From: Myxococcota bacterium
Lineage (GTDB): Bacteria > Myxococcota_A > UBA9160 > SZUA-336
Assembly: GCA_046757685.1 (NCBI GenBank)
Contig: JBHHYV010000002.1
Location: forward strand, 8,598 to 72,597
DNA length: 64,000 nucleotides
Reading direction: 5' to 3'
In this document: positions 1-49,248 of the stretch, in pieces
How the letters are laid out: every line of letters starts with the position of its first letter
How positions within the stretch are numbered: position 1 is the first letter of the stretch
Program-made: the position numbers and the translations under genes
Notes under the pieces: model-generated
What the model was told of the DNA's origin: nothing
Database searches by the model: none
The model's input: the letters and a program-made list of their open reading frames with translations, nothing else

Positions 1-673
1 CCGCCGCGCGATCGACCGCTGCAACCTGACGGTGCTCCTCGAGCCGGGACAGGAGGACACCGCGGAGTTCCTGGCCGAGTGGCGGGTCGCGATCGTCGCC
101 TCGCTGCCCTGCTACTCTCGAGAGAACGTCGATCGCCAGCGGGGCCGCGACGTCTTCACCCGTAGCATCGCGGCGCTGCGCCGGCTCAACCGCCTCGGCT
201 ACGCGCGACCCGGATCCGGGTTGGATCTGGACCTGGTCTACAACCCGCAGGGGCCCGAGCTCCCTCCGAGCCAGGAGGCGCTCGAGGCCCGCTACCGCGA
301 CGAGCTCGCGAGCCGCTACGGCGTTCGCTTCGGTCGCCTCTTCGCACTGGCCAACTGCCCGCTCGGCCGCTTCGCCTCCGATCTCGACAGGCAGCATCGG
401 CTCGAGTCCTACCAGGGGCTCCTCCGGGAGAGCTTCAACGAGCGCGCCGTCGCGGGGTTGATGTGCCGCCAGCTCGTCTCGATCGCCTGGGATGGCCGCC
501 TCCACGACTGCGACTTCCACCAGATGTCCGGGCTTCCGCTCGGGCGGGAGCACCTGCGCGTGTGGGACCTGGAGTCGTTCACCAAGCTGGATGGACGGGC
601 GGTCGCCACGGCTGCACACTGCTTTGCCTGCACCGCGGGCGCCGGTTCGAGCTGCACTGGAGCTCTCGCATGA
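1..673 (+). CDS. Radical SAM / Cys-rich C-terminal domain protein (ArsS-like, rSAM_SeCys-type). 3' fragment only; the 5' end lies upstream of the window.
   Basis: ORF track frame 32..673 is open to the window edge. Cys-rich tail ...HCFACTAGAGSSCTGALA is typical of the rSAM/Cys-rich family. The stop overlaps the next start (ATGA at 670-673). Confidence 0.55.
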   Translation, partial: RRAIDRCNLTVLLEPGQEDTAEFLAEWRVAIVASLPCYSRENVDRQRGRDVFTRSIAALRRLNRLGYARPGSGLDLDLVYNPQGPELPPSQEALEARYRDELASRYGVRFGRLFALANCPLGRFASDLDRQHRLESYQGLLRESFNERAVAGLMCRQLVSIAWDGRLHDCDFHQMSGLPLGREHLRVWDLESFTKLDGRAVATAAHCFACTAGAGSSCTGALA

Positions 674-1362
674 AGCACCGCAAGAGCCTGCTGATCGCTG
701 CCCTGGCAATCGCCGCGATCTGGGGTCTCGGCAGGCTCGCCGGGGGCTACCTGCCGGGGTTCCGGGACTGGGTCGCGGACCTCGGGGCCTGGGGGCCGCT
801 GGTCTTCATCGTCGGCTACGCGCTCGCGACGCTGGCGCTGATCCCGGGATCGGTGCTGACGCTCTCCGCGGGCGCGATCTTCGGCCTTGCCGAGGGAGTC
901 GTCTACGTGTTCGTGGCGGCCACGCTCGGTGCTTGCGGCGCCTTCCTGATCGGCCGTCACCTGGCGCGCTCGATGGTGGAGAAGCGCGTCGCCGCGAACC
1001 CTCGCTTCGCCGCGGTGGATCGGGCGATCGCCCAGTCGGGAGGGCGGATCGTGTTCCTGCTGCGCCTCTCGCCGGTCTTCCCGTTCACGTTCCTGAACTA
1101 CGCCCTCGGCCTCACGCGCGTGCGCTTCCGCGACTACACGCTCGCCTGCGTGGGGATGCTCCCCGGAACCCTGCTCTACGTCTACCTGGGCAAGGTCGCG
1201 GCCGAGGCCGCCACGCTCGCCGGAGGCGGGGCGAGCCCCCAGGGAGCCCTGCGTACGCTCGTCTGGGCGGTCGGCCTGGCCGCGACTGCGGCCGTCACCG
1301 TCTACGTCACGGCCATCGCTCGGCGCGCACTGCGCTCCCGGGTCGGCGTCGAGGCCCCGTAG
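670..1362 (+). CDS. TVP38/TMEM64 (DedA/SNARE-associated) family membrane protein
   Basis: Internal ATG at 670 in ORF 463..1362 (MKHRKSLLIAALAIAAIWGL...). Several hydrophobic helices and the motifs GYALATLALIPGSVLTLSAGAIFG / FLLRLSPVFPF. 4-nt overlap with the upstream gene. Confidence 0.75.
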   Translation: MKHRKSLLIAALAIAAIWGLGRLAGGYLPGFRDWVADLGAWGPLVFIVGYALATLALIPGSVLTLSAGAIFGLAEGVVYVFVAATLGACGAFLIGRHLARSMVEKRVAANPRFAAVDRAIAQSGGRIVFLLRLSPVFPFTFLNYALGLTRVRFRDYTLACVGMLPGTLLYVYLGKVAAEAATLAGGGASPQGALRTLVWAVGLAATAAVTVYVTAIARRALRSRVGVEAP

Positions 1363-1370
1363 GAGATCCC

Positions 1371-2891
1371 ATGCCCGAGATCGAGCTTCGCCCGGCGGAC
1401 CCCCACAACCGCAGGCTCCTCGCCAACGTGCACCCGGCGGACTGGGTCAATCCCGAGCCCCGGGGCCGCTACAACTTGGTCGTTCTCGGAGCTGGAACCG
1501 CAGGACTGATCACCGCCGCGGTCGCCGCCGGCCTCGGAGCGCGCGTCGCCCTGGTCGAGCGTCACCTGATGGGCGGCGACTGCCTCAACGTCGGCTGCGT
1601 CCCCTCGAAGGCGTTGATTCGCGCGTCGCGTGCGGCGGCCGAGGTCAGGCGCGCGCGAGAGTTCGGGATCCGGGTCGACGGGAAGATCGAGGTCGACTTC
1701 GCCGCCGTCATGGAGCGGTTGCGGCGCGCGCGCGCCGAGATCAGCCGCGACGACTCGGCTGAACGCTACCGTGACGAGCTGGGCGTGGACGTGTTCCTCG
1801 GAGAGGGCCGCTTTGCGGGTCGCGACCGCCTGCAGGTGGGCGAGGCTCAGCTGCGCTTCGCGCGCGCCGTGATCGCCACCGGTGCGCGGGCCACCGCGCC
1901 GCCGATTCCCGGCCTGGACGAGGCGGGGTTCCTGACGAACGAGAGCGTCTTCTCGCTCACCACCTGCCCCCCGCGGCTGGCCGTCATCGGCGCGGGGCCG
2001 ATCGGTTGCGAGCTGGCCCAGGCCTTCCAGCGGCTCGGCGCGCAGGTCCAGCTGCTCGAGATGGCTCCGCAGGTGCTGATTCGCGAAGACCCCGATGCAG
2101 CCGCCCTCGTCCAGGCGGCCCTCGTGCGCGACGGCGTAGAGCTGGTGCTGGACGCGCGCCTGGAGCGGGTGCGCAAGACGCCCGGGGGCAAGACGATCGA
2201 GTACACGCGTGGGGGCAGCCGCCAGTCGGTCGAGGTGGACGAGATCCTGGTGGGAGCCGGGCGGGCTCCCAACGTCGAGGGGCTCGGCCTCGAGCAGGCG
2301 GGGGTCGCGTTCGACCCGCGGCTCGGCGTCCGCGTCTCGGAGACCCTGCGCACTCGGAACCCACGCATCTGGGCCGCGGGCGACGTCTGCATGGCGTGGA
2401 AGTTCACGCACGCGGCCGAGGCGGCGGCCAAGATCGTGGTCCAGAACGCGCTCTTCCATCGCCGGCTGAAGCTCTCCCAGCTGGTCATGCCGTGGTGCAC
2501 CTACACCGACCCCGAGATCGCTCACGTGGGTCTCTACGAGGCCGAGGCGCGCGAGCGCGGAATCGAGGTCGAGACCTACCAGGTGCCGCTCGAGCGGGTG
2601 AACCGGGCGCTGCTCGACGGCGAGACCGAGGGCTTCGTGAAGCTCCACGTCCGCAAGGGAGGGGGTCGCCTGATTGGAGGGACGATCGTCGCCTCCCACG
2701 CGGGCGAGCTGATCAGCGAGCTGACGCTGGCGATGGTCGGAAAGCTCGGGCTCGGGACCGTGGCGAATACCGTCCATCCCTATCCGACGCAGGCCGAGGG
2801 CCTGCGCGCGGCGGCCAATGGCTACCTGCGATCGCGTCTGACGCCCCACGTGGCACGACTCTTCCGGAGCTGGCTCTCCCTGACCCGGTAG
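1371..2891 (+). CDS. FAD-dependent pyridine nucleotide-disulfide oxidoreductase (mercuric reductase / dihydrolipoamide dehydrogenase-like)
   Basis: ATG at 1371 with AGGAG 6 nt upstream. GAGTAG dinucleotide fold, redox CxxxxC (GGDCLNVGCVPSK) and a C-terminal dimerisation domain. Lies in-frame inside track ORF 492..2891. Confidence 0.85.
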   Translation: MPEIELRPADPHNRRLLANVHPADWVNPEPRGRYNLVVLGAGTAGLITAAVAAGLGARVALVERHLMGGDCLNVGCVPSKALIRASRAAAEVRRAREFGIRVDGKIEVDFAAVMERLRRARAEISRDDSAERYRDELGVDVFLGEGRFAGRDRLQVGEAQLRFARAVIATGARATAPPIPGLDEAGFLTNESVFSLTTCPPRLAVIGAGPIGCELAQAFQRLGAQVQLLEMAPQVLIREDPDAAALVQAALVRDGVELVLDARLERVRKTPGGKTIEYTRGGSRQSVEVDEILVGAGRAPNVEGLGLEQAGVAFDPRLGVRVSETLRTRNPRIWAAGDVCMAWKFTHAAEAAAKIVVQNALFHRRLKLSQLVMPWCTYTDPEIAHVGLYEAEARERGIEVETYQVPLERVNRALLDGETEGFVKLHVRKGGGRLIGGTIVASHAGELISELTLAMVGKLGLGTVANTVHPYPTQAEGLRAAANGYLRSRLTPHVARLFRSWLSLTR

Positions 2892-2909: not shown

Positions 2910-3857
2910 ATGAGGCCCCTCTGTCGACCCTTCCGCTTCCCGGTTGCGGGTCTCCCAGCTGCGGCCGTTCTCATCGGACTCAGCCTGGCGTGCGGCCCCG
3001 GAGGCGAGGGAGCTCTCCCCTGGGGCTTCGATCGCCATCCCCTCCAGCGCTTCCGACTCCAGTCGAACGCAGACGTGGTGGTGGATGGAGAGCCCGTCCG
3101 CGTGCAGCAGCTCGCCGAGGTTCACTTGGTCCTGCGCTCCGATCCCGACCCCGGGGGAGACCGGCCCGAGCTCGCGCTCTTCCTCGAGCGCTACTACTCC
3201 CACACGCAGGGAGGGCCCGGCGGCGAGAGCGAGCTGGCACTCTCGCACGACGGCCTCGTCAGTCGGATCCACCCCGATGCCGAGGTCGTGCTCGCCCCGG
3301 GCGACCCCGCACCCGGGGGGCAATCGGTGCTGGATCTGCTGGCACAGCCGCTGTCGGGCGTCTTTCTCTCCGGCGCGGAGCCGCGGGTGGGGACACCCTG
3401 GCACAGCCACAATCCCGTGCTGTCGCAGATCCGGCTGATCGACTGGCTGCTCTTTGCGCTGCCCCCGTCGGCCCCCGAGGGCGTCGGGAGCTGGGAGGTG
3501 CGGCGCTGGGTTCCCACGGTGGGTCGCTACGACCTGGGGATCGAGCTGGCCCTCCGCCAGCAGCGAACGGCCCTCGACAGCGAGGGGGCCGAGCTCGTGC
3601 GCTCCAGCGGACTCGCCCAACGTCGCGGCCTGCGCATCGCGCCCGGCCTTACGGGAGACCTGCGTCTGGACACGACCGGGGAGGCGAAGGTGGGGCCGGA
3701 CGGACGGGTCCGACAGGCGTTGCTCGAGCTGCGCATGCAGCTCCACGCGCCCGACGGACGCGAGGTCTCGGCCCGCTACCGGCTCGACGTGCAGTGTCTG
3801 GAGTGCGAGGAGGCGGTCAATCCCGCGGCGGAGACGCCCGATACGCTGATACAGTGA
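2910..3857 (+). CDS. Hypothetical lipoprotein
   Basis: ORF 2910..3857. N-terminus MRPLCRPFRFPVAGLPAAAVLIGLSLACG has a lipobox-like LSLAC. No recognisable family. Confidence 0.55.
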   Translation: MRPLCRPFRFPVAGLPAAAVLIGLSLACGPGGEGALPWGFDRHPLQRFRLQSNADVVVDGEPVRVQQLAEVHLVLRSDPDPGGDRPELALFLERYYSHTQGGPGGESELALSHDGLVSRIHPDAEVVLAPGDPAPGGQSVLDLLAQPLSGVFLSGAEPRVGTPWHSHNPVLSQIRLIDWLLFALPPSAPEGVGSWEVRRWVPTVGRYDLGIELALRQQRTALDSEGAELVRSSGLAQRRGLRIAPGLTGDLRLDTTGEAKVGPDGRVRQALLELRMQLHAPDGREVSARYRLDVQCLECEEAVNPAAETPDTLIQ

Positions 3858-3898: not shown

Positions 3899-4513
3899 AT
3901 GGCGGAGTTCGTCGAGGGGTTCGAGACGCTCTCGCCCGTGTGGCCGGCCGTCGCGGTCTTCGGCGGCGCTCGGGTCCTGCCGGGGAGCCCGGTATGGGAG
4001 CATGCCCAGGCGATCGGGGTCGAGCTGGGTCGGCGTGGGTTCGCGGTCATCACCGGGGGAGGACCGGGCGCCATGGAGGCCGCGAACCTGGGGGCGCGCA
4101 GCGCGGGAGCCCAGTCGATCGGTCTCAACATCAAGCTGCCCGACGAGCAGGCCGCCAACCCGCATGCGGATCCGGTGATCCACTTCGACTACTTCTTCGT
4201 GCGCAAGGTCATGTTCGTCAAGTACTCCTGTGCCTTCGTGGGGCTCCCGGGCGGATTCGGAACCCTCGACGAGATGTTCGAGTGCCTGACGCTGAAGCAG
4301 ACCGGCAAGATGAAGAACTTCCCGGTCATCCTCTTCGGCAGCGAGTACTGGGGCGGTCTGCTCGACTGGATGCGCTCGCGGCTCGTCGGCATGGGGCTGG
4401 TCTCGGAGAGTGATCTCGACCTCTTCCGGATCACCGATTCCCCCAGCGAGGTCGCCGACCTCGTCGAGGCGGGCCTGCACGACTCGGGCGAGGCTCCCGC
4501 CAATCGGATCTGA
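3899..4513 (+). CDS. LOG family protein (TIGR00730; cytokinin riboside 5'-monophosphate phosphoribohydrolase-like)
   Basis: In-frame ATG at 3899 within ORF 2006..4513. Motifs VFGGARV, GGGPGAMEA and PGGFGTLDE are typical of the LOG/YvdD family. Confidence 0.8.
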   Translation: MAEFVEGFETLSPVWPAVAVFGGARVLPGSPVWEHAQAIGVELGRRGFAVITGGGPGAMEAANLGARSAGAQSIGLNIKLPDEQAANPHADPVIHFDYFFVRKVMFVKYSCAFVGLPGGFGTLDEMFECLTLKQTGKMKNFPVILFGSEYWGGLLDWMRSRLVGMGLVSESDLDLFRITDSPSEVADLVEAGLHDSGEAPANRI

Positions 4514-4533: not shown

Positions 4534-6192
4534 TCAGGCGCTCTGGCTCCACTCTTCGATCTCCTCGTCGAGCGTGACCGGCGCCGCGGACTCCCCGCGG
4601 CGCTCGGCTTCTCGCGCCTGGAGCGCTTCGCGCGCGCCCCGGCCCAGGAAGAAGAGCAGGGGGCTCGCGACCAGGCAGACGGCACCGATGAAGACGTAGG
4701 CATCCTCGAACGCCAGAACCTGCGCCTGCAGGCCGAGCATTCCGTCGAGCGCCCGGTGCGCGGCGTGCAGGGCACTCGTCGGATCGAGCCCGCGGAGCTC
4801 GAAGAGCCCTCGGACCGCGCCCAGCCGTTGGCCGGCCATCGGATCGAGCAGGCCCACGTGCTCGCTCAGATACACCTTGTGCACGGTCGCGCGCTGGTCG
4901 AGAAGGGTGCCCAGGACCGCGATGCCCATGCTGCCCCCCAGCTGCCGGAACAGGTTGTAGAGCCCGGCCCCCTTGGTCACGTCCGTCGTCGGCAACGTCC
5001 GCAGGGTCGCGGTGGAGAGCGGCACGAACATCGCGCCCATCGCGATGCCGCGCATCACCTGCGGCCAGAAGATGTCGTCCCATCCCGACAGGTGATTCCA
5101 GTGCGCCATCCCGTAGAGGGCGACGCCAAAGACGCCGAGACCGAACGTGAACAGGGGTCGCGGCCCGAGCGGCCAGACCAGACGGCCCACGATCAGCATC
5201 GAGACCGCGGTCGCGATGCTCGAGGGCAGGATCGCCATGCCGGACTGCCAGGCCGTCCAGCCGAGCAGCGACTGGGAGTAGAGCGGAAACAGGAAGATGC
5301 TGCCGTAGAGACCGACTCCCATGACGAAGCCCAGCAGGCAGCCGACGGTCAGGCTGGGATGGCGCAGCACCCGCAGGTCGACGACCGGCTCGGGAGCCGT
5401 GAGCTCACGGACCACGAAGGCGACCCCTCCGAGCCCGGCCGTCACAGCGAGCACCCGGATGAAGCTGCTATCGAACCAGTCGAGTCGGTGGCCCCGCTCG
5501 AGCAGGATCTGCAGCGCACCCACCGAGACGATCAGCAGGGCGATCCCCGCGTAGTCGACGCGCATCTTCTTTCGACCCGAGAGATGGCGCGGGTTCTCGA
5601 TGAAGACCACGCACAGGAACGCTGCCAGCAGGCCGAGCGGGAGGTTGATGTAGAAGACCCAGGGCCACGAGAAGGTATCGGTGATCCAGCCTCCCAGCGT
5701 CGGACCCAGGCTGGGCCCGATCATCGCGCCGACCCCGAAGATCGCCTGACCCACACCCTGCCGCGAGGGCGGGAAGGTCTCGATCATCACCGACTGGGCC
5801 GTCGCGAGCAACGCTCCCCCCCCGCAGCCCTGGATCACGCGGAAGATCACCAGCTCTCCCAGGGACGTGCTGTTTCCGCACGCGACCGAGGCGGCAGTAA
5901 AGAGCAGGATCGATCCGGTCAGGTAGCGCTTGCGTCCGAAGCGGCTCGAGAGCCAGCTGGTCATCGGGATGACGATCACGTTCGAGACGATGTAGCCGGT
6001 CACGACCCAGCCGATCTCGTCGATCGTGGCGCCCAGGTTCCCCATCATGTCGGGAAGCGCCACGTTGACGATGCTCGAGTCGATGATCTCGAGGATCACG
6101 GCCAGCATGACCGCGAACACGATCATCAGGGTCCGAAAGTCGAGCCGGAACTCCTCGCCGCCGTCGGCGCTCGCCTCAGGGATGCTGGACAC
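4534..6192 (-). CDS. emrB: MFS transporter, DHA2 (EmrB/QacA) family efflux permease
   Basis: ORF 4534..6321 trimmed to GTG at 6192 (VSSIPEASADGGEEFRLDFRTLMIVFAVMLAVILE...), which aligns with the EmrB N-terminus. About 14 TM helices. Overlaps the emrA-like stop by 17 nt. Confidence 0.85.
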   Translation of the reverse strand: MSSIPEASADGGEEFRLDFRTLMIVFAVMLAVILEIIDSSIVNVALPDMMGNLGATIDEIGWVVTGYIVSNVIVIPMTSWLSSRFGRKRYLTGSILLFTAASVACGNSTSLGELVIFRVIQGCGGGALLATAQSVMIETFPPSRQGVGQAIFGVGAMIGPSLGPTLGGWITDTFSWPWVFYINLPLGLLAAFLCVVFIENPRHLSGRKKMRVDYAGIALLIVSVGALQILLERGHRLDWFDSSFIRVLAVTAGLGGVAFVVRELTAPEPVVDLRVLRHPSLTVGCLLGFVMGVGLYGSIFLFPLYSQSLLGWTAWQSGMAILPSSIATAVSMLIVGRLVWPLGPRPLFTFGLGVFGVALYGMAHWNHLSGWDDIFWPQVMRGIAMGAMFVPLSTATLRTLPTTDVTKGAGLYNLFRQLGGSMGIAVLGTLLDQRATVHKVYLSEHVGLLDPMAGQRLGAVRGLFELRGLDPTSALHAAHRALDGMLGLQAQVLAFEDAYVFIGAVCLVASPLLFFLGRGAREALQAREAERRGESAAPVTLDEEIEEWSQSA

Positions 6193-7210
6193 GGACCCGC
6201 ACTCCCACCGAGAGGCCGACGGCGAGCGCCGGCGGAGCGTTCGAAGTGTCCGGGGCCGGTGGGTCGAGGGCGATCCGTACCGGCACGCGCTGCACGACCT
6301 TCGTAAAGTTGCCCGTCGCATTGTCGGGCGGGATCAGGGCGTACTTGGCTCCGGTCGCGGGAGCGAGCGACTCGATGTGACCCCTCCAGACCCGGTCCGG
6401 GTACGCGTCGACGCGCACCTCGGCGGCATCCCCCACCGTCATGCGCCCGATCTGCGTCTCCTTGAAGTTCGCGACGACCCAGCGCGGCTCGTCCTGCGCG
6501 AGCGCCAGCAGGGGCTGGCCGGCCGCCACGTTCTGGCCGAGGCTCACGTTCTTGCGCCCGACGACTCCGTCGAAGGGCGCCACGAGCGTCGCATACGACA
6601 GGGCCAGCTCGGCCTCGTGGAGAGCGGCCTCGGCCAGGCGTACGGGCGCGCGATTTCCCAGCACCGCCCGCGCCGCCTCGGCGCGCTGCTCCGCCGCACG
6701 CTCGCGGGCCCGAGCCGCGTCACGCGCGGCCAGCGCATCGTCGAGCGCCACCGCGCTCGCCACGTCCCGGTCCTGCAGGGCGCGCACGCGCGCAACCTCT
6801 CGCTGCGCGTGCTCGCGCGCCACGCGCGCGGCGCTGCGGTCCGCCTCGGCCGCTGCTGCGGAGGCGGCGGCCGAGGCCAGCCTGTTGCGTGCCGCGTCCA
6901 GGTTGGCGCGCTCGCGCTCCACGCGCACCTCGAAGTCCCGAGGGTCGAGGCGAACGAGTACGTCCCCCCTGTGCACGTGCTGGTTCGTCTCCACGGGAAC
7001 CTCGAGCACGTGCCCTCCCACACGGGTGCTCAGCAGCACCAGCGTCGCCTCGACGTAGGCGTCATCCGTGCTCTCTCGCCAGCGCAGGTCGCGCATCCAG
7101 TGCACCGAGGCGAGGACCACGCCGACGAGCGTCACGACCCCCACCGTCGCGCCTGCGATCCGCACCCGAAAGCTGCGCTGCGCGTCCGCCTGGGGACCCG
7201 GCTCGCTCAT
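6176..7210 (-). CDS. emrA: HlyD/EmrA-family membrane fusion protein (efflux periplasmic adaptor)
   Basis: ORF 6176..7243 trimmed to ATG 7210 (MSEPGPQ...). N-terminal TM helix, coiled-coil region and C-terminal beta domain. ATGA overlap with the TetR gene. Confidence 0.8.
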   Translation of the reverse strand: MSEPGPQADAQRSFRVRIAGATVGVVTLVGVVLASVHWMRDLRWRESTDDAYVEATLVLLSTRVGGHVLEVPVETNQHVHRGDVLVRLDPRDFEVRVERERANLDAARNRLASAAASAAAAEADRSAARVAREHAQREVARVRALQDRDVASAVALDDALAARDAARARERAAEQRAEAARAVLGNRAPVRLAEAALHEAELALSYATLVAPFDGVVGRKNVSLGQNVAAGQPLLALAQDEPRWVVANFKETQIGRMTVGDAAEVRVDAYPDRVWRGHIESLAPATGAKYALIPPDNATGNFTKVVQRVPVRIALDPPAPDTSNAPPALAVGLSVGVRVRVQHP

Positions 7211-7875
7211 CGCACAGCCTCCGGGGGGCGGCGGACTCCGCACAGGAAGATCGAGACGAAGGTGTCGGTCACCACCTGGGAGGACTGCGGGTAGATCTGC
7301 CGCTGGCCGAAGATCTCGCGCACGATCAGGTGGTCGATGACCATCCCCAGGAAGGCGCGCGCCGCCAGCATGGGGTCGAGCTCACGGAAGGCCCCCTCTC
7401 GGGAGCGGCGCTCGATGTAGCCCGCCAGGAACCTCCGGAGTCTCTGGATGCGCGTCTCGAAGAAGGGTGCGGCGAGGGCGTGGCCCTCGAGCGCGGTGTA
7501 GAGCAGGATCCGGAGGAACGAGGGGTCCGCCTCGATGGTCTCGACGATCACCCGCGCCAGGCCCTCGAAGACGGCCCGGTCCTCGCCCGCCGCCGCCGCT
7601 GCCGCCACCCCCTCGAGCGGATCGGGCGCCTGGATCTTCTCGTGGATGATCGCGGAGTAGAGGGCCTCCTTGTTCTCGAAGTAGCGATAGAGCGCGGCCT
7701 CGGTGATTCCGACCCGGCGGGCGACCTCGCGGGTGGTCGTGCCGCGAAAGCCGCTGGTCGCGAAGCAGTGAAGGGCCTCACGCAGGATCTGGCGGCGACG
7801 CTCCGGCCCGCCGGGCCGGGATCCCTGGAGCCGGGCCGAGGGCTTGCGCGCGCTTCCTTCGGGGTGTTCTGGCAT
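7207..7875 (-). CDS. TetR/AcrR family transcriptional regulator
   Basis: ORF 7207..7875. HTH region ...GFRGTTTREVARRVGITEAALYRYFENKEAL. First gene of the tetR-emrA-emrB operon. Confidence 0.85.
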   Translation of the reverse strand: MPEHPEGSARKPSARLQGSRPGGPERRRQILREALHCFATSGFRGTTTREVARRVGITEAALYRYFENKEALYSAIIHEKIQAPDPLEGVAAAAAAGEDRAVFEGLARVIVETIEADPSFLRILLYTALEGHALAAPFFETRIQRLRRFLAGYIERRSREGAFRELDPMLAARAFLGMVIDHLIVREIFGQRQIYPQSSQVVTDTFVSIFLCGVRRPPEAVR

Positions 7876-41678: not shown

Positions 41679-44600
41679 TCAGTGGAGATCCTGGCGCTGG
41701 CGCCGCGCGTCGAGTCGAGCGAGCAGCTGTGTGGCGAGGCGCCCGATCCGGGACAGCGCACCCCCCTTCGCCACCTCGAGGGCGAGCGCGGCCTGGCGGG
41801 CTGCGGAGGCGGAGTCCCCCGCCCGCTCGGAGGCGACGCCGGCATCGACCCAGGCTGCCGCAGAGATCCTCCGCAGCCCCTGGGCCTGGGCGCGCTCCGC
41901 GCAGCGCTCGAAGCGCGGGGGAGCGGCCATCGGATCGGCGCCCGGCTCCGCGGCGGCGGCGCGCGCCTCGGCCAGCTCCGTCAGGGTCTCGCGCAGCTGC
42001 CCCGCCGCCCACTCTCGCGCCACCTCGACCGCCCGGGCCGCCTCGGCCGGGCGACCCACCGCGAGCAGCGCCTCGACGACCAGGTCCGCCTCGAAGGCGA
42101 TGTCGCTCCCGCGGGAGATCTCTTCGCACAGCCCGTCGAGGTGCCGGGTGTCCGCCGGAAGGCCCCGCGCAGCGTCCGCGAGCAACGCGATGGCGTTCGC
42201 CGTGCGCCGCGTCGGAAGCAGGTCGTACTCGCGAGCGATCGCCAGGGCCTGCTCCGCCAGCACAGCCGCGCGCTCGGGATCGTCCCCCTCGAGGGCGAGC
42301 CGCGCCAGGCGCGCCAGCGACGTGGCCTGGACCGAGCGGTTCGGTGCCTGCTCGGCGCAGCGAAGGGTCTCGCGGGTCTCGCTCTCCGCGCTCGCGAGCT
42401 CTCCCGCGAGCGAGAGCGCGCGATCGCGATAGGCCCTCGCCGTGACGTAGAGATCGGTCTGGGCATCGCGCTCGCCCAGCGCCGCGAGACCGTCGACCAC
42501 CTCGCCGAGCAGGCGCCGGGCCTCGTCGATGCGGGAGTCGAGCAGGTACGCCCATCCCAGCTGCCGGCCCATCCGCAGAGCCGGGAGTGCGGAGTCCTCC
42601 GCCTGCGCAATCTGGCTCGCTCTCTCGATCAGACCCAGTCCCTCGCTGAAGCTCCCCGGCAGGTTGCACAGCTCCGTGCCCCGTTGCGCCAGGAGCTCCG
42701 CCAGCGAGACCGGGTCCCGGAGCTCCTCGGCCAGCGCGACGCCGCGCTCGAAGGCATCGTCGCTCTCGGGTCCCGAGCCCCGGGTGAGGGCGCGCGCCCT
42801 CGAGACGCCGATCGCCGCCTCGAGCGCGGCGCGGCGGTCCGCCTCGGACTGGACTCCGCCCGCGAGCAGCCACTCCCGCGCGAGCGTCCAGGCCTGGGTC
42901 CGAAAGCGAAAGGCGGTGGTGAACGCCGGGATCGCCTCGGCCTCGAGCGCGGCCACGAGCAACGCGCGAACCGCGCGCGGACGGTCGTCGCTGCGCGACC
43001 AGTGGTGGGCCAGCAGCGCGGCGCGCTCGGGTGTCTTGCCCGCCGGGTCCCCCTCCACGAAGCGCGCCAGCTGCGCATGCAAGCGCCGGCGCTCGCGAAG
43101 CAGCAGGCTCTCGTAGGCCACCTCCTGGGTCAGGCTCTCGCCGAAGCGATAGACCCCCTCCCCCAGCTCGCGGCGCGGATAGACGATTCCCCGGCCCTCG
43201 AGCAGCGAGAGCTGCTGCGACACGTCGACCCCGCTGCCCATGAGAAGATGCTCGAGCTCCTGGGTGCGAAACTGTCGGCCCGCCACGGCCGCCGTCTGCG
43301 CCAGGCGCTTCGCCGTCGCCGGCAGCCGGTCGAGGCGCGCCCCGAGGAGCTCGTGGACGCTGCTCGGGATGGGGATCTCGTCGACCGGCCGCGCGGTGCG
43401 CATCCGCCCGTCCTCCACGACCAGGTCACCGGCCTCCAGGACCGCCCGGGTCAGCTCTTCGGCGTAGAAGGGATTGCCCTCCGCCTTGGCGACGAGGCGG
43501 GCCCGAAGCTCGGCCGGGACCTCGGCTCCCGCAACCGCGTCGACGATCTCTCCGATGTGGGCGTCCGCGAGCGCACCCAGGTTCAGCTGCGTGAACGCCG
43601 AGCGGGTCTCCCACCGCGGCCGGTAGTCGGGACGGTGCGACACGACCAGGAGGATCCGCCCCCCCTCGATCCTCGCGGCCGCCATCTCCAGGTCGTGGCG
43701 GGAGTCCTCATCGATCCAGTGCAGGTCCTCGAGCACCAGGACCACGGGTCCGCGGTCGGCCAGCCCGGTGATCAGGCGCTCGACCGCGCGAAAGCTCGCC
43801 CGCCGCAGCTCGTCTCTCGAGCCCTCCGGCGGCTCCCCGCGATCGATCGAGAGCATGCGGCACAGGTAGGGGGCGATCTCGGTGCCATCCGGATCCCACT
43901 CCGAGACGCCGTCCCGGACGCGTTGCTCGCGAGCCTCGGCGGAGTCGTCGGGCTGGATTCCGAAGTGATTCTCGAGCATCCGGATCCACACGTAGTCCGG
44001 AACCGAGCTCGCGAGCGAGGAGCAGCGCGCCTCCAGGATCGTCGCTCCGCGGGACGCGGTCCGTCGCTTGAACTCGTGGACCAGGCGGGACTTGCCGCTT
44101 CCCGCCTCACCGACGATGGCCACCATCTGTGTCAGGCCGGCACCGACGCGGGTGAAGCTGTCCTCGAGCTGGCCCAGGTACGCCTCGCGACCGATGAAGG
44201 GAGTGAGCGCCTGACCGGAGGCGGCATCCGGCTCCCTCTGGCCCAGCACCCGATAGGCCCGCACCCGCTCGCTGCGGCCCTTGAGCCGGACCGGCCCTAC
44301 GAGCTCGAGCGAGAAGCGCCCGCCGAGCAGCCGCTGCGTGCTCTCGCTGATCCAGATCGTCCCCGGGTCCGCCAGCGACTCCAGGCGCGAGGCGAGATTC
44401 GTCGTGTCTCCGATCGCGGTGTAGTCCGTCTTGGCCTCGCTCCCGACGGTGCCCACGACGGCGAGGCCGGTATGGATGCCGATCCGCGCCTCGAGCGGAT
44501 GCTCCCCCGTCGCGCCCGCCAGGAGGCGACGCTGGATCGCGAGCGCCGCCGACACCGCCCGCGCAGGCGAGTCCTCGCGCGCGATCGGTGCGCCGAAGAG

Positions 44601-44996
44601 CGCCATGACCCCGTCCCCCGTCAGCTGGTTGACGACCCCCCCGGCCGCTTCGATCTCGCTCATCACGCTCTCGAGGTAGCGCCCGAGCAGCTCGCGGTAC
44701 TCCTCGGGGTCGAGGGGCTCCGCGATCCCGGTCGAGTTCGCGAGATCGCAGAAGAGGACCGTGACCTGCTTGCGCTCCCCCGCCGCAGGCTCGCCCGGAG
44801 AGCGCCGCGCGGCCCGCGCCTGCGGCCCGGCCGGGCCCGCGTCCGTCGAAGCCCGCGACCCGCACTCCGGACAGAACCGGAAGTGCGCTTCGAGAGCCGC
44901 GCCGCACTGTGCGCAGCGGCGGCCCACCGGCTCGCCACAGCTGGGGCAGAAGCGCATGCTCCGAAGCAGGGGGGCGCCGCAGCTCGGGCAGTCCAT
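41679..44996 (-). CDS. Multidomain signalling protein: double zinc ribbon, class III adenylate/guanylate cyclase, AAA/STAND NTPase, TPR array
   Basis: ORF 41679..45005. ATG at 44996 (MDCPSCGAPLL...CPSCGEP...CAQCGA...CPECGS). Cyclase motifs FCDLANSTG and GDGVMALFG. P-loop GEAGSGKS. Long TPR/helical C-terminus. Confidence 0.85.
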   Translation of the reverse strand: MDCPSCGAPLLRSMRFCPSCGEPVGRRCAQCGAALEAHFRFCPECGSRASTDAGPAGPQARAARRSPGEPAAGERKQVTVLFCDLANSTGIAEPLDPEEYRELLGRYLESVMSEIEAAGGVVNQLTGDGVMALFGAPIAREDSPARAVSAALAIQRRLLAGATGEHPLEARIGIHTGLAVVGTVGSEAKTDYTAIGDTTNLASRLESLADPGTIWISESTQRLLGGRFSLELVGPVRLKGRSERVRAYRVLGQREPDAASGQALTPFIGREAYLGQLEDSFTRVGAGLTQMVAIVGEAGSGKSRLVHEFKRRTASRGATILEARCSSLASSVPDYVWIRMLENHFGIQPDDSAEAREQRVRDGVSEWDPDGTEIAPYLCRMLSIDRGEPPEGSRDELRRASFRAVERLITGLADRGPVVLVLEDLHWIDEDSRHDLEMAAARIEGGRILLVVSHRPDYRPRWETRSAFTQLNLGALADAHIGEIVDAVAGAEVPAELRARLVAKAEGNPFYAEELTRAVLEAGDLVVEDGRMRTARPVDEIPIPSSVHELLGARLDRLPATAKRLAQTAAVAGRQFRTQELEHLLMGSGVDVSQQLSLLEGRGIVYPRRELGEGVYRFGESLTQEVAYESLLLRERRRLHAQLARFVEGDPAGKTPERAALLAHHWSRSDDRPRAVRALLVAALEAEAIPAFTTAFRFRTQAWTLAREWLLAGGVQSEADRRAALEAAIGVSRARALTRGSGPESDDAFERGVALAEELRDPVSLAELLAQRGTELCNLPGSFSEGLGLIERASQIAQAEDSALPALRMGRQLGWAYLLDSRIDEARRLLGEVVDGLAALGERDAQTDLYVTARAYRDRALSLAGELASAESETRETLRCAEQAPNRSVQATSLARLARLALEGDDPERAAVLAEQALAIAREYDLLPTRRTANAIALLADAARGLPADTRHLDGLCEEISRGSDIAFEADLVVEALLAVGRPAEAARAVEVAREWAAGQLRETLTELAEARAAAAEPGADPMAAPPRFERCAERAQAQGLRRISAAAWVDAGVASERAGDSASAARQAALALEVAKGGALSRIGRLATQLLARLDARRQRQDLH

Positions 44997-45079
44997 CGAG
45001 CCCAAAGACTCGCCACGCGAGGGCTCGCGTCAAGCTCGGCGCGGCTCACACAGGCCCCGTCGCGAAGAGGCGACGGCCC

Positions 45080-47707: not shown

Positions 47708-47898
47708 CGGCGCACGCGACCCCCGGGGAAAGGACGAGCCGGGGGTAGTCAAGGGCGCCCCTCCTGGCTTATGCTCTCGCGGCAGTTACGCGGGACCCGA
47801 GGGGGCGGCTGCGCCACTCTCCGCGGGCTTTCGCCACTATCAGTTCAGGCTCTGCGCCGGGGCGCCTCCCGCTCCTGCGCCGCAATGGGAGGATCTTG

Positions 47899-49248
47899 AT
47901 GCGCGCCTTCGCCGCCATGCTGGCCTTGACCCTGGCCGTGCCGACCCTGGCACGGGCCCAGGAGTCCGCCGAGGACGTCGTTCCGGGAGTGCCCTTCAAG
48001 GAGGGCGACGTCATCTCGTTCGACCAGGTCGACAAGATGAAGAACTACCTGCCGCCGGAGTTCTGGGCGAATCGCGAGTACTTCTTCTACGAGGGCATGG
48101 AGCTCAAGATCGGTCCCTTCTTCCGCAAGTACGGCGAGGCCGACGCCTACCGCAAGGCGACCCAGGAGTACGCGGGCACCGTCAAGATCGGCAAGGACGG
48201 GGCGCTCGTGAACTACCAGGCGGGCCAGCCCTTCCCGACCGACTCGATCGACTGCAAGGGTGATCCGCAGGCGGGCGTCAAGATCATCTGGAACTTCAAC
48301 AAGGCCTGGAATGGCGATGGCTCCCACTCGACCTGGTCGTACACGTACTGGGACCGCGGGGAGCAGCTGCCGCTCTACTACGAGGGAACGGCGCGTGCGA
48401 TCGCGCTCAAGCACCGGGTAGAGCCCAAGTACCTGCCGAAAGACCGCAACATCTTCAAGAACGAGAAGCGGAGCAGCGCCTTCGGAATCGAGGTGACCGC
48501 CCCCTTCGACGCCCGCGGCATCCTGCTCATGACCTACCGCTACGCGTCTGCCGATGGGCCCCTCGACGAGGCCAAGAACGACGACACCTGGGTCTACCTG
48601 CCCGACCTGCGCCGCGTGCGGCGCATCTCGACCGCCCAGCGCACCGACTCGGTCCAGGGCACCGACTTCACGATGGACGACCTGCGAAGCTTCTCCGGAA
48701 TTCCGCCGCAGTACTCGTGGGACTGCCTCGGCGAGGCCGACGTGCTGTCGCCCTTCAACACCAGCCATCTCGCGTATCCCTACCGGGATGACTACAACTT
48801 CGGCCCCTATGGCTTCTCGTTCGCGAACGACTCGTGGGAGCTGCGACACGCCTGGATCATCCGCTTCGACCCGAAGAACGAGGACCATCCCTACCACCAC
48901 AAGGACATCTACGTAGACAAGGAGACCTACGAGCCGCTCTACAGCTTTGCCTACGACCGCAAGAAGGAGCTGTGGAAGGTCATCTGGCACAACCACCGCT
49001 ACTCCGACGACTGGCAGGCCCAGGACAAGGAGCATACCGATCCGCTCGCGAAGAACGGCGTCTGGTACCCGGGCTGGGACGGGGTCGAGGACCCCAAGGA
49101 CCTGCGGATCGTGAGCGACATCATCGTGAACGTGCAGACCGGGACCGGCAACCGGATCGAGTTCTGGAACAACGCGGGAACGCCCCTGCCCTCGAAGGGC
49201 AAGATCCGTCGCTACATCGACATCGGCCGCCTGAACAAGGGACGCTGA
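47899..49248 (+). CDS. Secreted protein, DUF1329-like (tentative)
   Basis: ATG 47899 (TTG at 47896) after GGGAGGA. Signal peptide MRAFAAMLALTLAVPTLARA. W/Y/N/K-rich beta-type composition unlike its neighbours. Confidence 0.7.
   Translation: MRAFAAMLALTLAVPTLARAQESAEDVVPGVPFKEGDVISFDQVDKMKNYLPPEFWANREYFFYEGMELKIGPFFRKYGEADAYRKATQEYAGTVKIGKDGALVNYQAGQPFPTDSIDCKGDPQAGVKIIWNFNKAWNGDGSHSTWSYTYWDRGEQLPLYYEGTARAIALKHRVEPKYLPKDRNIFKNEKRSSAFGIEVTAPFDARGILLMTYRYASADGPLDEAKNDDTWVYLPDLRRVRRISTAQRTDSVQGTDFTMDDLRSFSGIPPQYSWDCLGEADVLSPFNTSHLAYPYRDDYNFGPYGFSFANDSWELRHAWIIRFDPKNEDHPYHHKDIYVDKETYEPLYSFAYDRKKELWKVIWHNHRYSDDWQAQDKEHTDPLAKNGVWYPGWDGVEDPKDLRIVSDIIVNVQTGTGNRIEFWNNAGTPLPSKGKIRRYIDIGRLNKGR

Follow-up and report, generated by a model that had tools for sequence, protein, structure and literature searches.

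What does the gene for an arsenosugar biosynthesis enzyme share with those for a DedA membrane protein and a flavoprotein resembling mercuric reductase, so that the three stand in a tight row? The question is raised by the first 2,891 nt of a 64,000-nt stretch of DNA from a Myxococcota bacterium (assembly GCA_046757685.1, contig JBHHYV010000002.1, positions 8,598 to 72,597), which was analysed at its full length and is called the window below. The region is a Myxococcota operon of arsS, dedA, a merA-like reductase gene and, probably, a lipoprotein gene. Surveys of related loci show a conserved partnership of dedA and the reductase gene with arsS; the two are frequently joined in a single ORF and lie embedded between arsM/arsS and glycosyltransferase or MTAP genes. 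In the reading that we favour, with a probability of roughly 0.4, the operon belongs to an arsenosugar-type organoarsenical pathway, in which the DedA-reductase pair would couple membrane handling to the reduction of pentavalent arsenic.

The operon and its proteins

The arsS gene is cut by the window edge. Its 3' part (2..673, + strand) is a frame-2 open reading frame (ORF), open at nt 2 and closed by a TGA at 671-673. It encodes the C-terminal 223 aa, ending in ...AAHCFACTAGAGSSCTGALA, of a 323-aa radical SAM/Cys-rich (DUF3641) protein. The fragment matched DUF3641 (PF12345, E=1.4e-49) and positions 83-303 of the ArsS model TIGR04167 (299 bits). A protein search retrieved a 100%-identical, complete 323-aa protein (P0001) from a 78-kb contig, which NCBI names 'MAG: arsenosugar biosynthesis radical SAM (seleno)protein ArsS [Myxococcota bacterium]', and the missing 5' 300 nt of the gene were recovered from this second assembly (L001, 2339-3310). 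The complete protein covers positions 4-303 of the 303 in TIGR04167 with 415.2 bits, against a cutoff of 300 for this equivalog model. Its radical SAM motif, C36-NQA-C40-RH-C43 (CxxxCxxC), is located upstream of the window, in L001. An ArsS-type radical SAM/Cys-rich protein had been proposed from the fragment, and the completed gene bears this out.

Judged by its match to the model, gene 1 is an ArsS orthologue; taken alone, it is unremarkable and its annotation is correct. It shares 50-61% identity with homologues from cyanobacteria and numerous other phyla. As a radical SAM enzyme that forms an arsenic-carbon bond, ArsS transfers the 5'-deoxyadenosyl group of SAM to dimethylarsenite (DMAs(III)). 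It performs the first committed step of arsenosugar synthesis, acting on the products of ArsM (bioRxiv 10.1101/2022.09.23.509062). The enzyme adenosylates DMAs(III) to 5'-deoxy-5'-dimethylarsinoyl-adenosine (DDMAA) in a redox-neutral reaction; it needs the trivalent substrate and, once primed, no external reductant (PMC13598754). Orthology predicts the same conversion of DMAs(III) to DDMAA for the protein encoded here. A selenoprotein, for which the original prediction had left room, was rejected. The tail of the complete protein, HCFACTAGAGSSC, matches the conserved HC..CTAG.GSSC(U) motif of DUF3641 with a Cys, no in-frame TGA occurs at this C-terminal motif, and where some family members have Sec, this protein and all 80 relatives examined have Cys.

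The junctions between the genes are tight. The ATG of dedA (670-672) overlaps the arsS stop codon (ATGA). The dedA gene (670..1362, +), which encodes a 230-aa inner-membrane protein of the TVP38/TMEM64 DedA superfamily, ends with a TAG at 1360-1362. A gap of 8 nt (1363-1370) separates it from the gene for the 506-aa reductase (1371..2891, +). Within the junction (1361..1370, +), a ribosome-binding site AGGAG (1361-1365), read from the sequence, overlaps the dedA stop codon and precedes the ATG at 1371 by 5 nt. The ATGA overlap, the 8-nt gap, the gene coordinates and the CxxxxC centre of the reductase had all been read correctly beforehand. In L001, arsS is the first co-directional gene; upstream of it lie a 150-nt intergenic region and then divergent genes for a 229-aa protein without assignment and a PilZ protein.

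The DedA protein carries a VTT domain (PF09335, E=3.7e-29, 102 bits against a Pfam cutoff of 33.9). Its assignment to COG0398 is taken from the NCBI name 'TVP38/TMEM64 family protein' (MFQ5696743.1). R96, R132, P135, P138 and N143 are conserved in the 73 partner DedA sequences compared (R132-L-x-P135-x-x-P138-F-x3-N143). Its two Cys are not, being Thr or Ser in most of these partners, and a thiol relay through DedA of the DsbD/CcdA kind was therefore rejected. The protein does not belong to the UptA/COG0586 undecaprenyl-phosphate transporters either, scoring 19 bits against the NF052604 cutoff of 250. PF07992/PF02852 oxidoreductase domains are reported as the commonest fusion partner of COG0398 DedA proteins; the function of the fusion is left open in that work and related solely to aerobic metabolism and a possible scramblase activity, and no link to arsS or to arsenosugar genes is mentioned (Todor et al. 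2023, PMC10127716).

The third protein is a MerA-like class-I pyridine-nucleotide-disulfide oxidoreductase. It belongs to the NF004991 subfamily ('FAD-containing oxidoreductase', 800.8 bits against a cutoff of 620), with Pfam matches to Pyr_redox_2 (PF07992), Pyr_redox (PF00070) and Pyr_redox_dim (PF02852). The MerA model TIGR02053 comes second among NCBIfam models and stays below its cutoff (419.1 against 454.45 bits), and the models for glutathione reductase, LpdA and mycothione reductase are all below cutoff as well. The nearest solved structures are those of MerA (5x1y, 282 bits; 1zk7, 251 bits), with lipoamide dehydrogenases next. The VTT domain, the NF004991 match and these structures uphold the initial calls of a TVP38/DedA protein and a MerA-like flavoprotein.

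The active site was compared with MerA and with 16 split and fused homologues, in which G68-G-D-C71-L-N-x-G-C76-V-P-S-K80, D128, S129, R132, C213 and Y471-P-T473 are invariant. The redox-active C71-L-N-V-G-C76 of the flavoprotein (CxxxxC; 1581..1598, +) aligns with the active-site pair of MerA. Glutathione reductase and lipoamide dehydrogenase carry a catalytic His (HPTxxE) at the position of Y471. No such His was found here: the motif reads Y-P-T-Q-A-E (Y471-P-T at 2781..2789, +), and the preceding H469 varies (H/L/F/Y) among the homologues. Instead, the segment hPYPTQAEGLraAA aligns to PYLTMAEGLKLAA / PYLTMVEGLKLAA of MerA (PYLTM[AV]EGLK), which places Y471 on the active-site Tyr of MerA. 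As far as sequence can tell, the Tyr in place of His fits a non-disulfide, metal(loid)-type substrate.

Mercury itself is unlikely, because the C-terminal Cys pair of MerA is absent: the reductase ends in ...LTPHVARLFRSWLSLTR, and none of the 16 aligned homologues has the pair. No HMA/NmerA domain was matched in the reductase. In MerA, these additional Cys pairs bind metal; RclA, a homologue with a single pair, has another substrate (PMC7527725). The genomic context is not that of a mer operon, since the neighbours are arsS, dedA, the lipoprotein gene and a LOG-family gene, and no merR, merT or merP occurs in the operon. Furthermore, behind the second Rossmann strand the reductase has a Glu and MerA an Ala-Arg, which suggests a preference for NADH rather than NADPH. 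The NCBI name 'mercuric reductase' is thus probably wrong for this subfamily. Split reductases share a conserved N-terminal extension of about 30 aa and a C-terminal RxRLTPxV...W tail; in the fused forms, both are shortened or missing. The two elements are plausibly a docking surface that the fusion replaces.

The fourth gene (2910..3857, +), a 'hypothetical protein' in the NCBI annotation, starts 19 nt 3' of the reductase gene. It encodes a lineage-restricted, predicted lipoprotein of 315 aa with a lipobox-like LSLAC, and is a probable fourth member of the operon in this Myxococcota lineage. The lipoprotein has no family assignment, and every homologue that was found sits 3' of a MerA-like reductase. 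Its low-confidence structural model is all-beta and resembles outer-membrane barrels or LolA-like proteins.

Conservation of the linkage

To what extent the linkage is conserved was asked in both directions. The forward survey covered 80 species-representative ArsS loci (L002-L081), the best 80 of at least 594 matches, from Myxococcota, Bdellovibrionota, Acidobacteriota, Planctomycetota, Nitrospirota, Binatia, Cyanobacteria, and Alpha-, Beta- and Gammaproteobacteria. Loci were fetched with an ArsS homologue alignment, and their flanking ORFs were clustered, named by NCBIfam and Pfam, and scored by phmmer. Both surveys are made of the best 80 matches and of taxa that are not independent of each other, and use stop-to-stop ORFs and single-sequence phmmer thresholds.

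In 35 of the 80 loci, DedA and/or the MerA-like reductase was encoded within 6 kb of arsS, and in 31 within 3 kb. Both were present within 6 kb in at least 21 loci, a lower bound because several contigs end inside the DedA-reductase pair. Within the same distance, an ArsM-like methyltransferase occurred in 25 loci, the TIGR04282/TIGR04283 'arsenosugar biosynthesis glycosyltransferases' in 17, an MTAP-type phosphorylase in ten and an ECF sigma factor in nine; DUF547, DUF3047 and PiT/PHO4 transporter genes accompanied arsS in a few loci each. No neighbour of arsS is as frequent in this sample as the DedA/MerA-like pair, which comes ahead of arsM, and in 16 loci DedA or the reductase stands together with ArsM, a glycosyltransferase or MTAP. 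As a background control, the 780 kb within 6 kb of arsS hold 29 DedA and 29 reductase homologues, while the 391 kb in the outer flanks of the 80 loci and the remaining 61 kb of the window hold none. The adjacency is far beyond chance.

The two accessory proteins are also joined physically. In 12 loci, from Beta- and Gammaproteobacteria, Rhodospirillales, Bdellovibrionales and one member of Binatia, DedA and the reductase form one uninterrupted ORF. For one 710-aa fusion product, NF004991 is the best match of residues 236-709. The tight junctions, the linkage in 35 of 80 genomes of several phyla and these fusions support the original prediction that the trio is one functional unit, for which a conserved gene neighbourhood had been named as the check.

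The gene orders of related clusters place the pair among arsenosugar genes. For example, arsM-arsS-dedA-reductase-glycosyltransferase was found in L158, and arsM-arsS-PiT-dedA-reductase-DUF547-glycosyltransferase in L132. In Microbulbifer okhotskensis (L061) the order is MTAP-arsS-dedA-reductase followed by two glycosyltransferase genes. Noviherbaspirillum (L073) has the same order with a fused dedA::reductase and an additional DUF3047 gene at the end, and Thiobacillus (L070) has arsS-dedA::reductase-DUF547, two glycosyltransferase genes and arsM. The fullest of these clusters lies on plasmid p1 of Cupriavidus sp. KK10 (L167 6066-16663; NZ_CP073678.1, ~978.4-989.0 kb), with ten genes on one strand: PiT, ArsM, ArsS, reductase, DedA, TIGR04283, TIGR04282, MTAP, a second radical SAM protein (~460 aa) and DUF547. 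This strain is a cultured isolate, and the cluster, which has no listed annotation in PLSDB, offers a ready experimental system. The second radical SAM and DUF547 genes are also found 3' of arsS in Burkholderia plasmids.

Five Myxococcota relatives (L023, L031, L041, L082, L089) share the arsS-dedA-reductase order of the window, and a convergent zf-HC2 anti-sigma/ECF sigma pair comes next. Such genes, for a TIGR02943-like ECF sigma factor and an RsrA-like zf-HC2 anti-sigma factor, adjoin arsS/reductase clusters in 23 loci, including L014, L021 and these five. Their recurrence suggests control by thiol-reactive stress. No ECF sigma/anti-sigma pair lies beside the operon in the window.

The reverse survey started from the reductase and covered the best 80 metagenome loci of its relatives (46-65% identity). 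Upstream sequence of 900 nt or more was available for 61 of them, and in 34 of these DedA is encoded directly 5' of the reductase. For 22 loci the flanks reach 2.5 kb or more on either side; here DedA is encoded in 17, at least one arsenosugar protein (ArsS, ArsM, glycosyltransferase or MTAP) in 12, and ArsS itself in five.

Do the arsM-linked and the pair-linked genes represent two paralogous ArsS subfamilies? This was rejected, because members of both kinds are intermixed in a neighbour-joining tree of the 80 ArsS sequences. We therefore regard ArsS as one orthologous family whose operon composition is variable. Across the 80 loci, adjacency to arsM and adjacency to DedA/reductase are negatively associated (odds ratio 0.18-0.28, p 0.01-0.06, uncorrected for phylogeny). 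In Acidobacteriota, Nitrospirota and Planctomycetota most loci are linked to arsM, in Betaproteobacteria most to dedA::reductase.

Some arsS clusters do without the pair. On 49 Burkholderia plasmids, such as p2002721643 of B. thailandensis (L164, 1-14307) and pWSGX3 of B. glumae (L165), the arsS cluster lacks DedA and the reductase and carries genes for a CcdA-family protein, an exported thioredoxin, an ECF sigma factor, a zf-HC2 anti-sigma factor, an MFS transporter, DUF6969, MTAP, TIGR04283 and TIGR04282. In L075 the pair is likewise absent, and CcdA, an exported thioredoxin and an MFS transporter are encoded in the cluster. CcdA and thioredoxin may be a non-orthologous replacement of the pair in Burkholderia plasmids. 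As a general replacement this was not upheld and is kept as an idea, the combination being found only in the Burkholderia plasmids, L075 and L024 (CcdA only). On plasmid pTs417 of Candidatus Thiodictyon syntrophicum (L166 7305-10605), a GT2 gene and a sterol-desaturase-family gene precede arsS and a TIGR04282 gene follows, with thioredoxin-family and GST genes nearby. From this order, ArsS may have some connection to lipid chemistry.

Possible roles of the pair

The pair probably functions in the ArsS pathway. This is the firmest of our functional claims, and the mechanism that we propose goes further. DedA and the reductase would work as one unit at the inner membrane, where DedA may bring an arsenical to the membrane or carry it through. 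The cytoplasmic flavoprotein would then use NAD(P)H, FAD and Cys71/Cys76 for the two-electron reduction of arsenate, methylarsonate (MAs(V)) or dimethylarsinate (DMAs(V)). In this way, it could supply or maintain the air-sensitive trivalent substrates of ArsM and ArsS, by a logic that we liken to the MerT-MerA coupling of uptake and reduction in mercury resistance. Since ArsS is redox-neutral and needs DMAs(III), a dedicated reductase is more plausibly placed upstream of ArsS than in its recycling.

Of the themes considered beforehand (arsenic, selenium or mercury, or redox-lipid chemistry), arsenic is favoured because the pair is embedded among arsS/arsM, TIGR04282/TIGR04283, MTAP and PiT genes, and mercury is not. 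From the easily oxidised trivalent substrate, from clusters that can start with a PiT phosphate/arsenate-type transporter gene, from a neighbourhood without an ArsC-type family and from the tie of the reductase to a membrane protein we infer that DedA takes up or handles arsenicals at the membrane, and that As(V), MAs(V) or DMAs(V) is reduced in step by the flavoprotein. The absence of an ArsC-type arsenate reductase refers to the recurrent neighbour families that were clustered and named, no search aimed at ArsC having been made. As no arsM is nearby, the trio of the window may draw on methylated arsenic that is imported. The negative association with arsM fits the proposed uptake and reduction weakly, and so does the CcdA, thioredoxin and MFS set of the Burkholderia plasmids and L075, as another combination of membrane passage with thiol-based reduction. 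That the substrate of the reductase is an arsenical at all is a tentative assignment, and doubtful when taken by itself. That the pair is the first dedicated bacterial uptake-plus-reduction system for pentavalent arsenic, dimethylarsinate and methylarsonate included, and feeds ArsM and ArsS, is rather unlikely.

Several observations weigh against the favoured reading. The COG0398 DedA subfamily is discussed as possible lipid scramblases, not as solute transporters (PMC10127716). Approximately half of the adequately flanked reductase loci have no arsenosugar gene within 6 kb, and the DedA-reductase pair could have a broader role. The recurrent ECF sigma/zf-HC2 neighbours would also fit a general thiol-stress module, and taxonomy is a likely confounder of the negative association with arsM. 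For both accessory proteins, the proposed substrate is drawn from gene association and active-site analogy. Finally, phmmer searches with family representatives found no arsM, TIGR04282/TIGR04283 or MTAP gene in the 64-kb window, nor is there one in the 2.3 kb upstream of it. The arsenosugar pathway of this bacterium may therefore be incomplete, or encoded elsewhere in the genome.

The doubt about solute transport leads directly to lipids. DedA could be a scramblase or flippase for a lipid-linked arsenosugar, either an arsenosugar phospholipid or a polyprenyl-phosphate-linked product of the GT2-type TIGR04283 enzyme, which would thereby be exposed on the outer leaflet or in the periplasm. The reductase would be auxiliary, acting for example on the oxidation state of lipid-bound arsenic or on a thiol partner. 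COG0398 DedA proteins are homologous to eukaryotic scramblases and are possible phospholipid scramblases themselves (PMC10127716). TIGR04282/TIGR04283 transferases often lie directly 3' of the pair, TIGR04283 is weakly similar to polyprenyl-phosphate glycosyltransferases, and exported proteins are encoded 3' of the reductase (DUF547, DUF3047 and, here, the lipoprotein with its possible LolA-like or barrel fold). The sterol-desaturase-family gene 5' of arsS in Thiodictyon points the same way. This joint scenario is nevertheless unlikely: it leaves the fusion of a cytoplasmic MerA-like reductase to DedA unexplained, the trio occurs without a glycosyltransferase in the window and in several Myxococcota loci, and the fold of the lipoprotein comes from a low-confidence model. 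A broader role, to which the reductase loci without arsenosugar genes point, could be that of a general module against thiol or oxidant stress. Its reductase would act like RclA or Har, or on a low-molecular-weight disulfide, and its place near arsS would reflect co-regulation by the ECF sigma factor and zinc anti-sigma factor, arsenicals being thiol poisons. The recurrence of these ECF sigma and RsrA-like zf-HC2 genes beside the pair agrees with this, the widespread DedA-reductase fusion is tied in the literature solely to an aerobic lifestyle (PMC10127716), and, among MerA homologues, those with a single Cys pair have oxidants or Cu(II) as substrates (PMC7527725). Yet the pair is tightly spaced inside co-directional biosynthetic operons, between arsS and the glycosyltransferase or MTAP genes, and is found beside arsS even more often than arsM, so that we give a mere stress module a rather small chance.

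Could the flavoprotein instead serve the pathway enzymes, by reducing a disulfide of ArsM or of the Cys-rich domain at the C-terminus of ArsS, or by priming the [4Fe-4S] cluster? The turnover of ArsM is thought to need a thiol reductant. The translational coupling with arsS would suit such a role, as would the binding of As(III) through Cys (Sec in some species), which the NCBIfam family names imply. However, ArsS needs no external reductant beyond priming (PMC13598754), and class-I enzymes with Tyr for the acid-base His are not typical protein-disulfide reductases. Moreover, this explanation gives the fusion to DedA no role, and the pair often accompanies glycosyltransferase genes while neither arsS nor arsM is nearby. 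It is disfavoured and, in our view, improbable. A true mercuric reductase, with DedA importing Hg(II), has on its side the NCBI product name, the MerA structures as closest relatives and the MerA-type Tyr. Against these stand the score of 419 bits below the TIGR02053 cutoff of 454, the missing C-terminal Cys pair, NmerA domain and merR/T/P genes, and the Glu after the second Rossmann strand in place of Ala-Arg. These membership tests essentially exclude the reduction of mercury.

A pathway-bound reductase coupled to membrane handling, as in the favoured reading, would fill a gap. We know of no dedicated reductase for methylated As(V) species that is established in bacteria, and the pair is a good candidate for the missing reduction/transport step of the arsenosugar pathway. 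The results bear on the question of how the trivalent arsenicals required for organoarsenical biosynthesis, which are easily oxidised, are provided and kept intact in aerobic bacteria. They also bear on the function of the COG0398 DedA proteins and their common disulfide-oxidoreductase fusions, left open in the DedA literature. If the proposed mechanism is true, bacteria without a nearby arsM could build arsenosugar-type compounds from scavenged methylated arsenic, and the widespread COG0398 DedA-oxidoreductase fusions would have a first concrete physiological role. Both questions are directly testable in cultured carriers, e.g. Cupriavidus sp. KK10 and Microbulbifer okhotskensis.

Surroundings of the operon and known systems

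The remainder of the window is housekeeping in character and includes genes for MutL, MutS, Der, GlnD and a PGI-like protein, and two tRNAs. These tRNAs were all that Rfam returned at its gathering thresholds from the window and L001, with no regulatory RNA. An arsenic island in the window was rejected, as phmmer searches with representatives of the cluster families, ECF sigma, PiT, DUF547 and DUF3047 among them, were empty over the 64 kb. On the same strand as the operon, 41 nt past the lipoprotein gene, lies a LOG/'lysine decarboxylase'-family (SLOG) gene (3899-4513), which is not recurrent in related loci. Overlapping or adjacent genes at 4534-7875 (- strand) converge on the arsS operon. 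Their ORFs of 222, 355 and 595 aa look, by eye only, like a TetR-type regulator, an HlyD/EmrA-type adaptor and an EmrB-type MFS efflux pump. Further away, 41679-45005 (-) encodes a 1108-aa protein with N-terminal double zinc ribbons, and adenylate/guanylate cyclase and AAA_16 (STAND-type) ATPase domains. A DUF1329/LolA-like protein is encoded at 47896-49248, with a GC content by codon position that is unusual for the genome (GC1 0.58, GC2 0.41, GC3 0.93).

The trio had been thought not to correspond to a characterised operon, and the literature searched agrees. Our search found no paper that links arsenosugar or ArsS genes with DedA or a MerA-like reductase; the one feature already on record is the fusion of DedA with the reductase, whose function was left open (PMC10127716). 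The DedA/MerA-like pair as a frequent partner of arsS, and as part of complete clusters in cultured bacteria, thus appears undescribed. How, then, does the operon compare with known systems? The closest reference for arsS itself is the ArsM-ArsS system of Synechocystis sp. PCC 6803, to which the ArsS of the window relates as an equivalog-level member of TIGR04167. In Synechocystis, arsS is co-transcribed with arsM (bioRxiv 10.1101/2022.09.23.509062), whereas here it heads an operon with dedA and the reductase gene. The arsenosugar cluster described by NCBIfam (ArsM, ArsS, TIGR04282, TIGR04283, MTAP) contains the pair in Cupriavidus sp. KK10 p1, Microbulbifer, Thiobacillus and Noviherbaspirillum. 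The window differs from it in having arsS alone, without the full cluster, and neither DedA nor the reductase has an arsenosugar-related name or model. The COG0398 DedA-PF07992/PF02852 fusions (PMC10127716) combine the same two families, which are split in the window and fused in the 12 surveyed arsS loci.

Among metal and oxidant systems, MerT/MerA likewise joins a membrane protein to an NAD(P)H- and FAD-dependent CxxxxC reductase with the MerA-type Tyr. The membrane partner in the window is DedA and not MerT, and the substrate that we propose is arsenic. RclA and Har, reductases of Cu(II) and HOSCN, share the MerA-like fold and the CxxxxC pair only, and set a precedent for small non-disulfide substrates. 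The reductase of the window scores far below their models (240 against 740 bits for RclA, 216 against 650 for Har), and its context and terminal extensions are different. The CcdA and exported thioredoxin of Burkholderia occur in the same kind of cluster, with arsS, ECF sigma/anti-sigma, MTAP, TIGR04282/TIGR04283 and DUF547 genes, and also combine a membrane protein with thiol-based reduction. Their families are unrelated to the pair, and CcdA sends electrons to the periplasm, while DedA has no conserved Cys. The two combinations may nevertheless be functionally equivalent.

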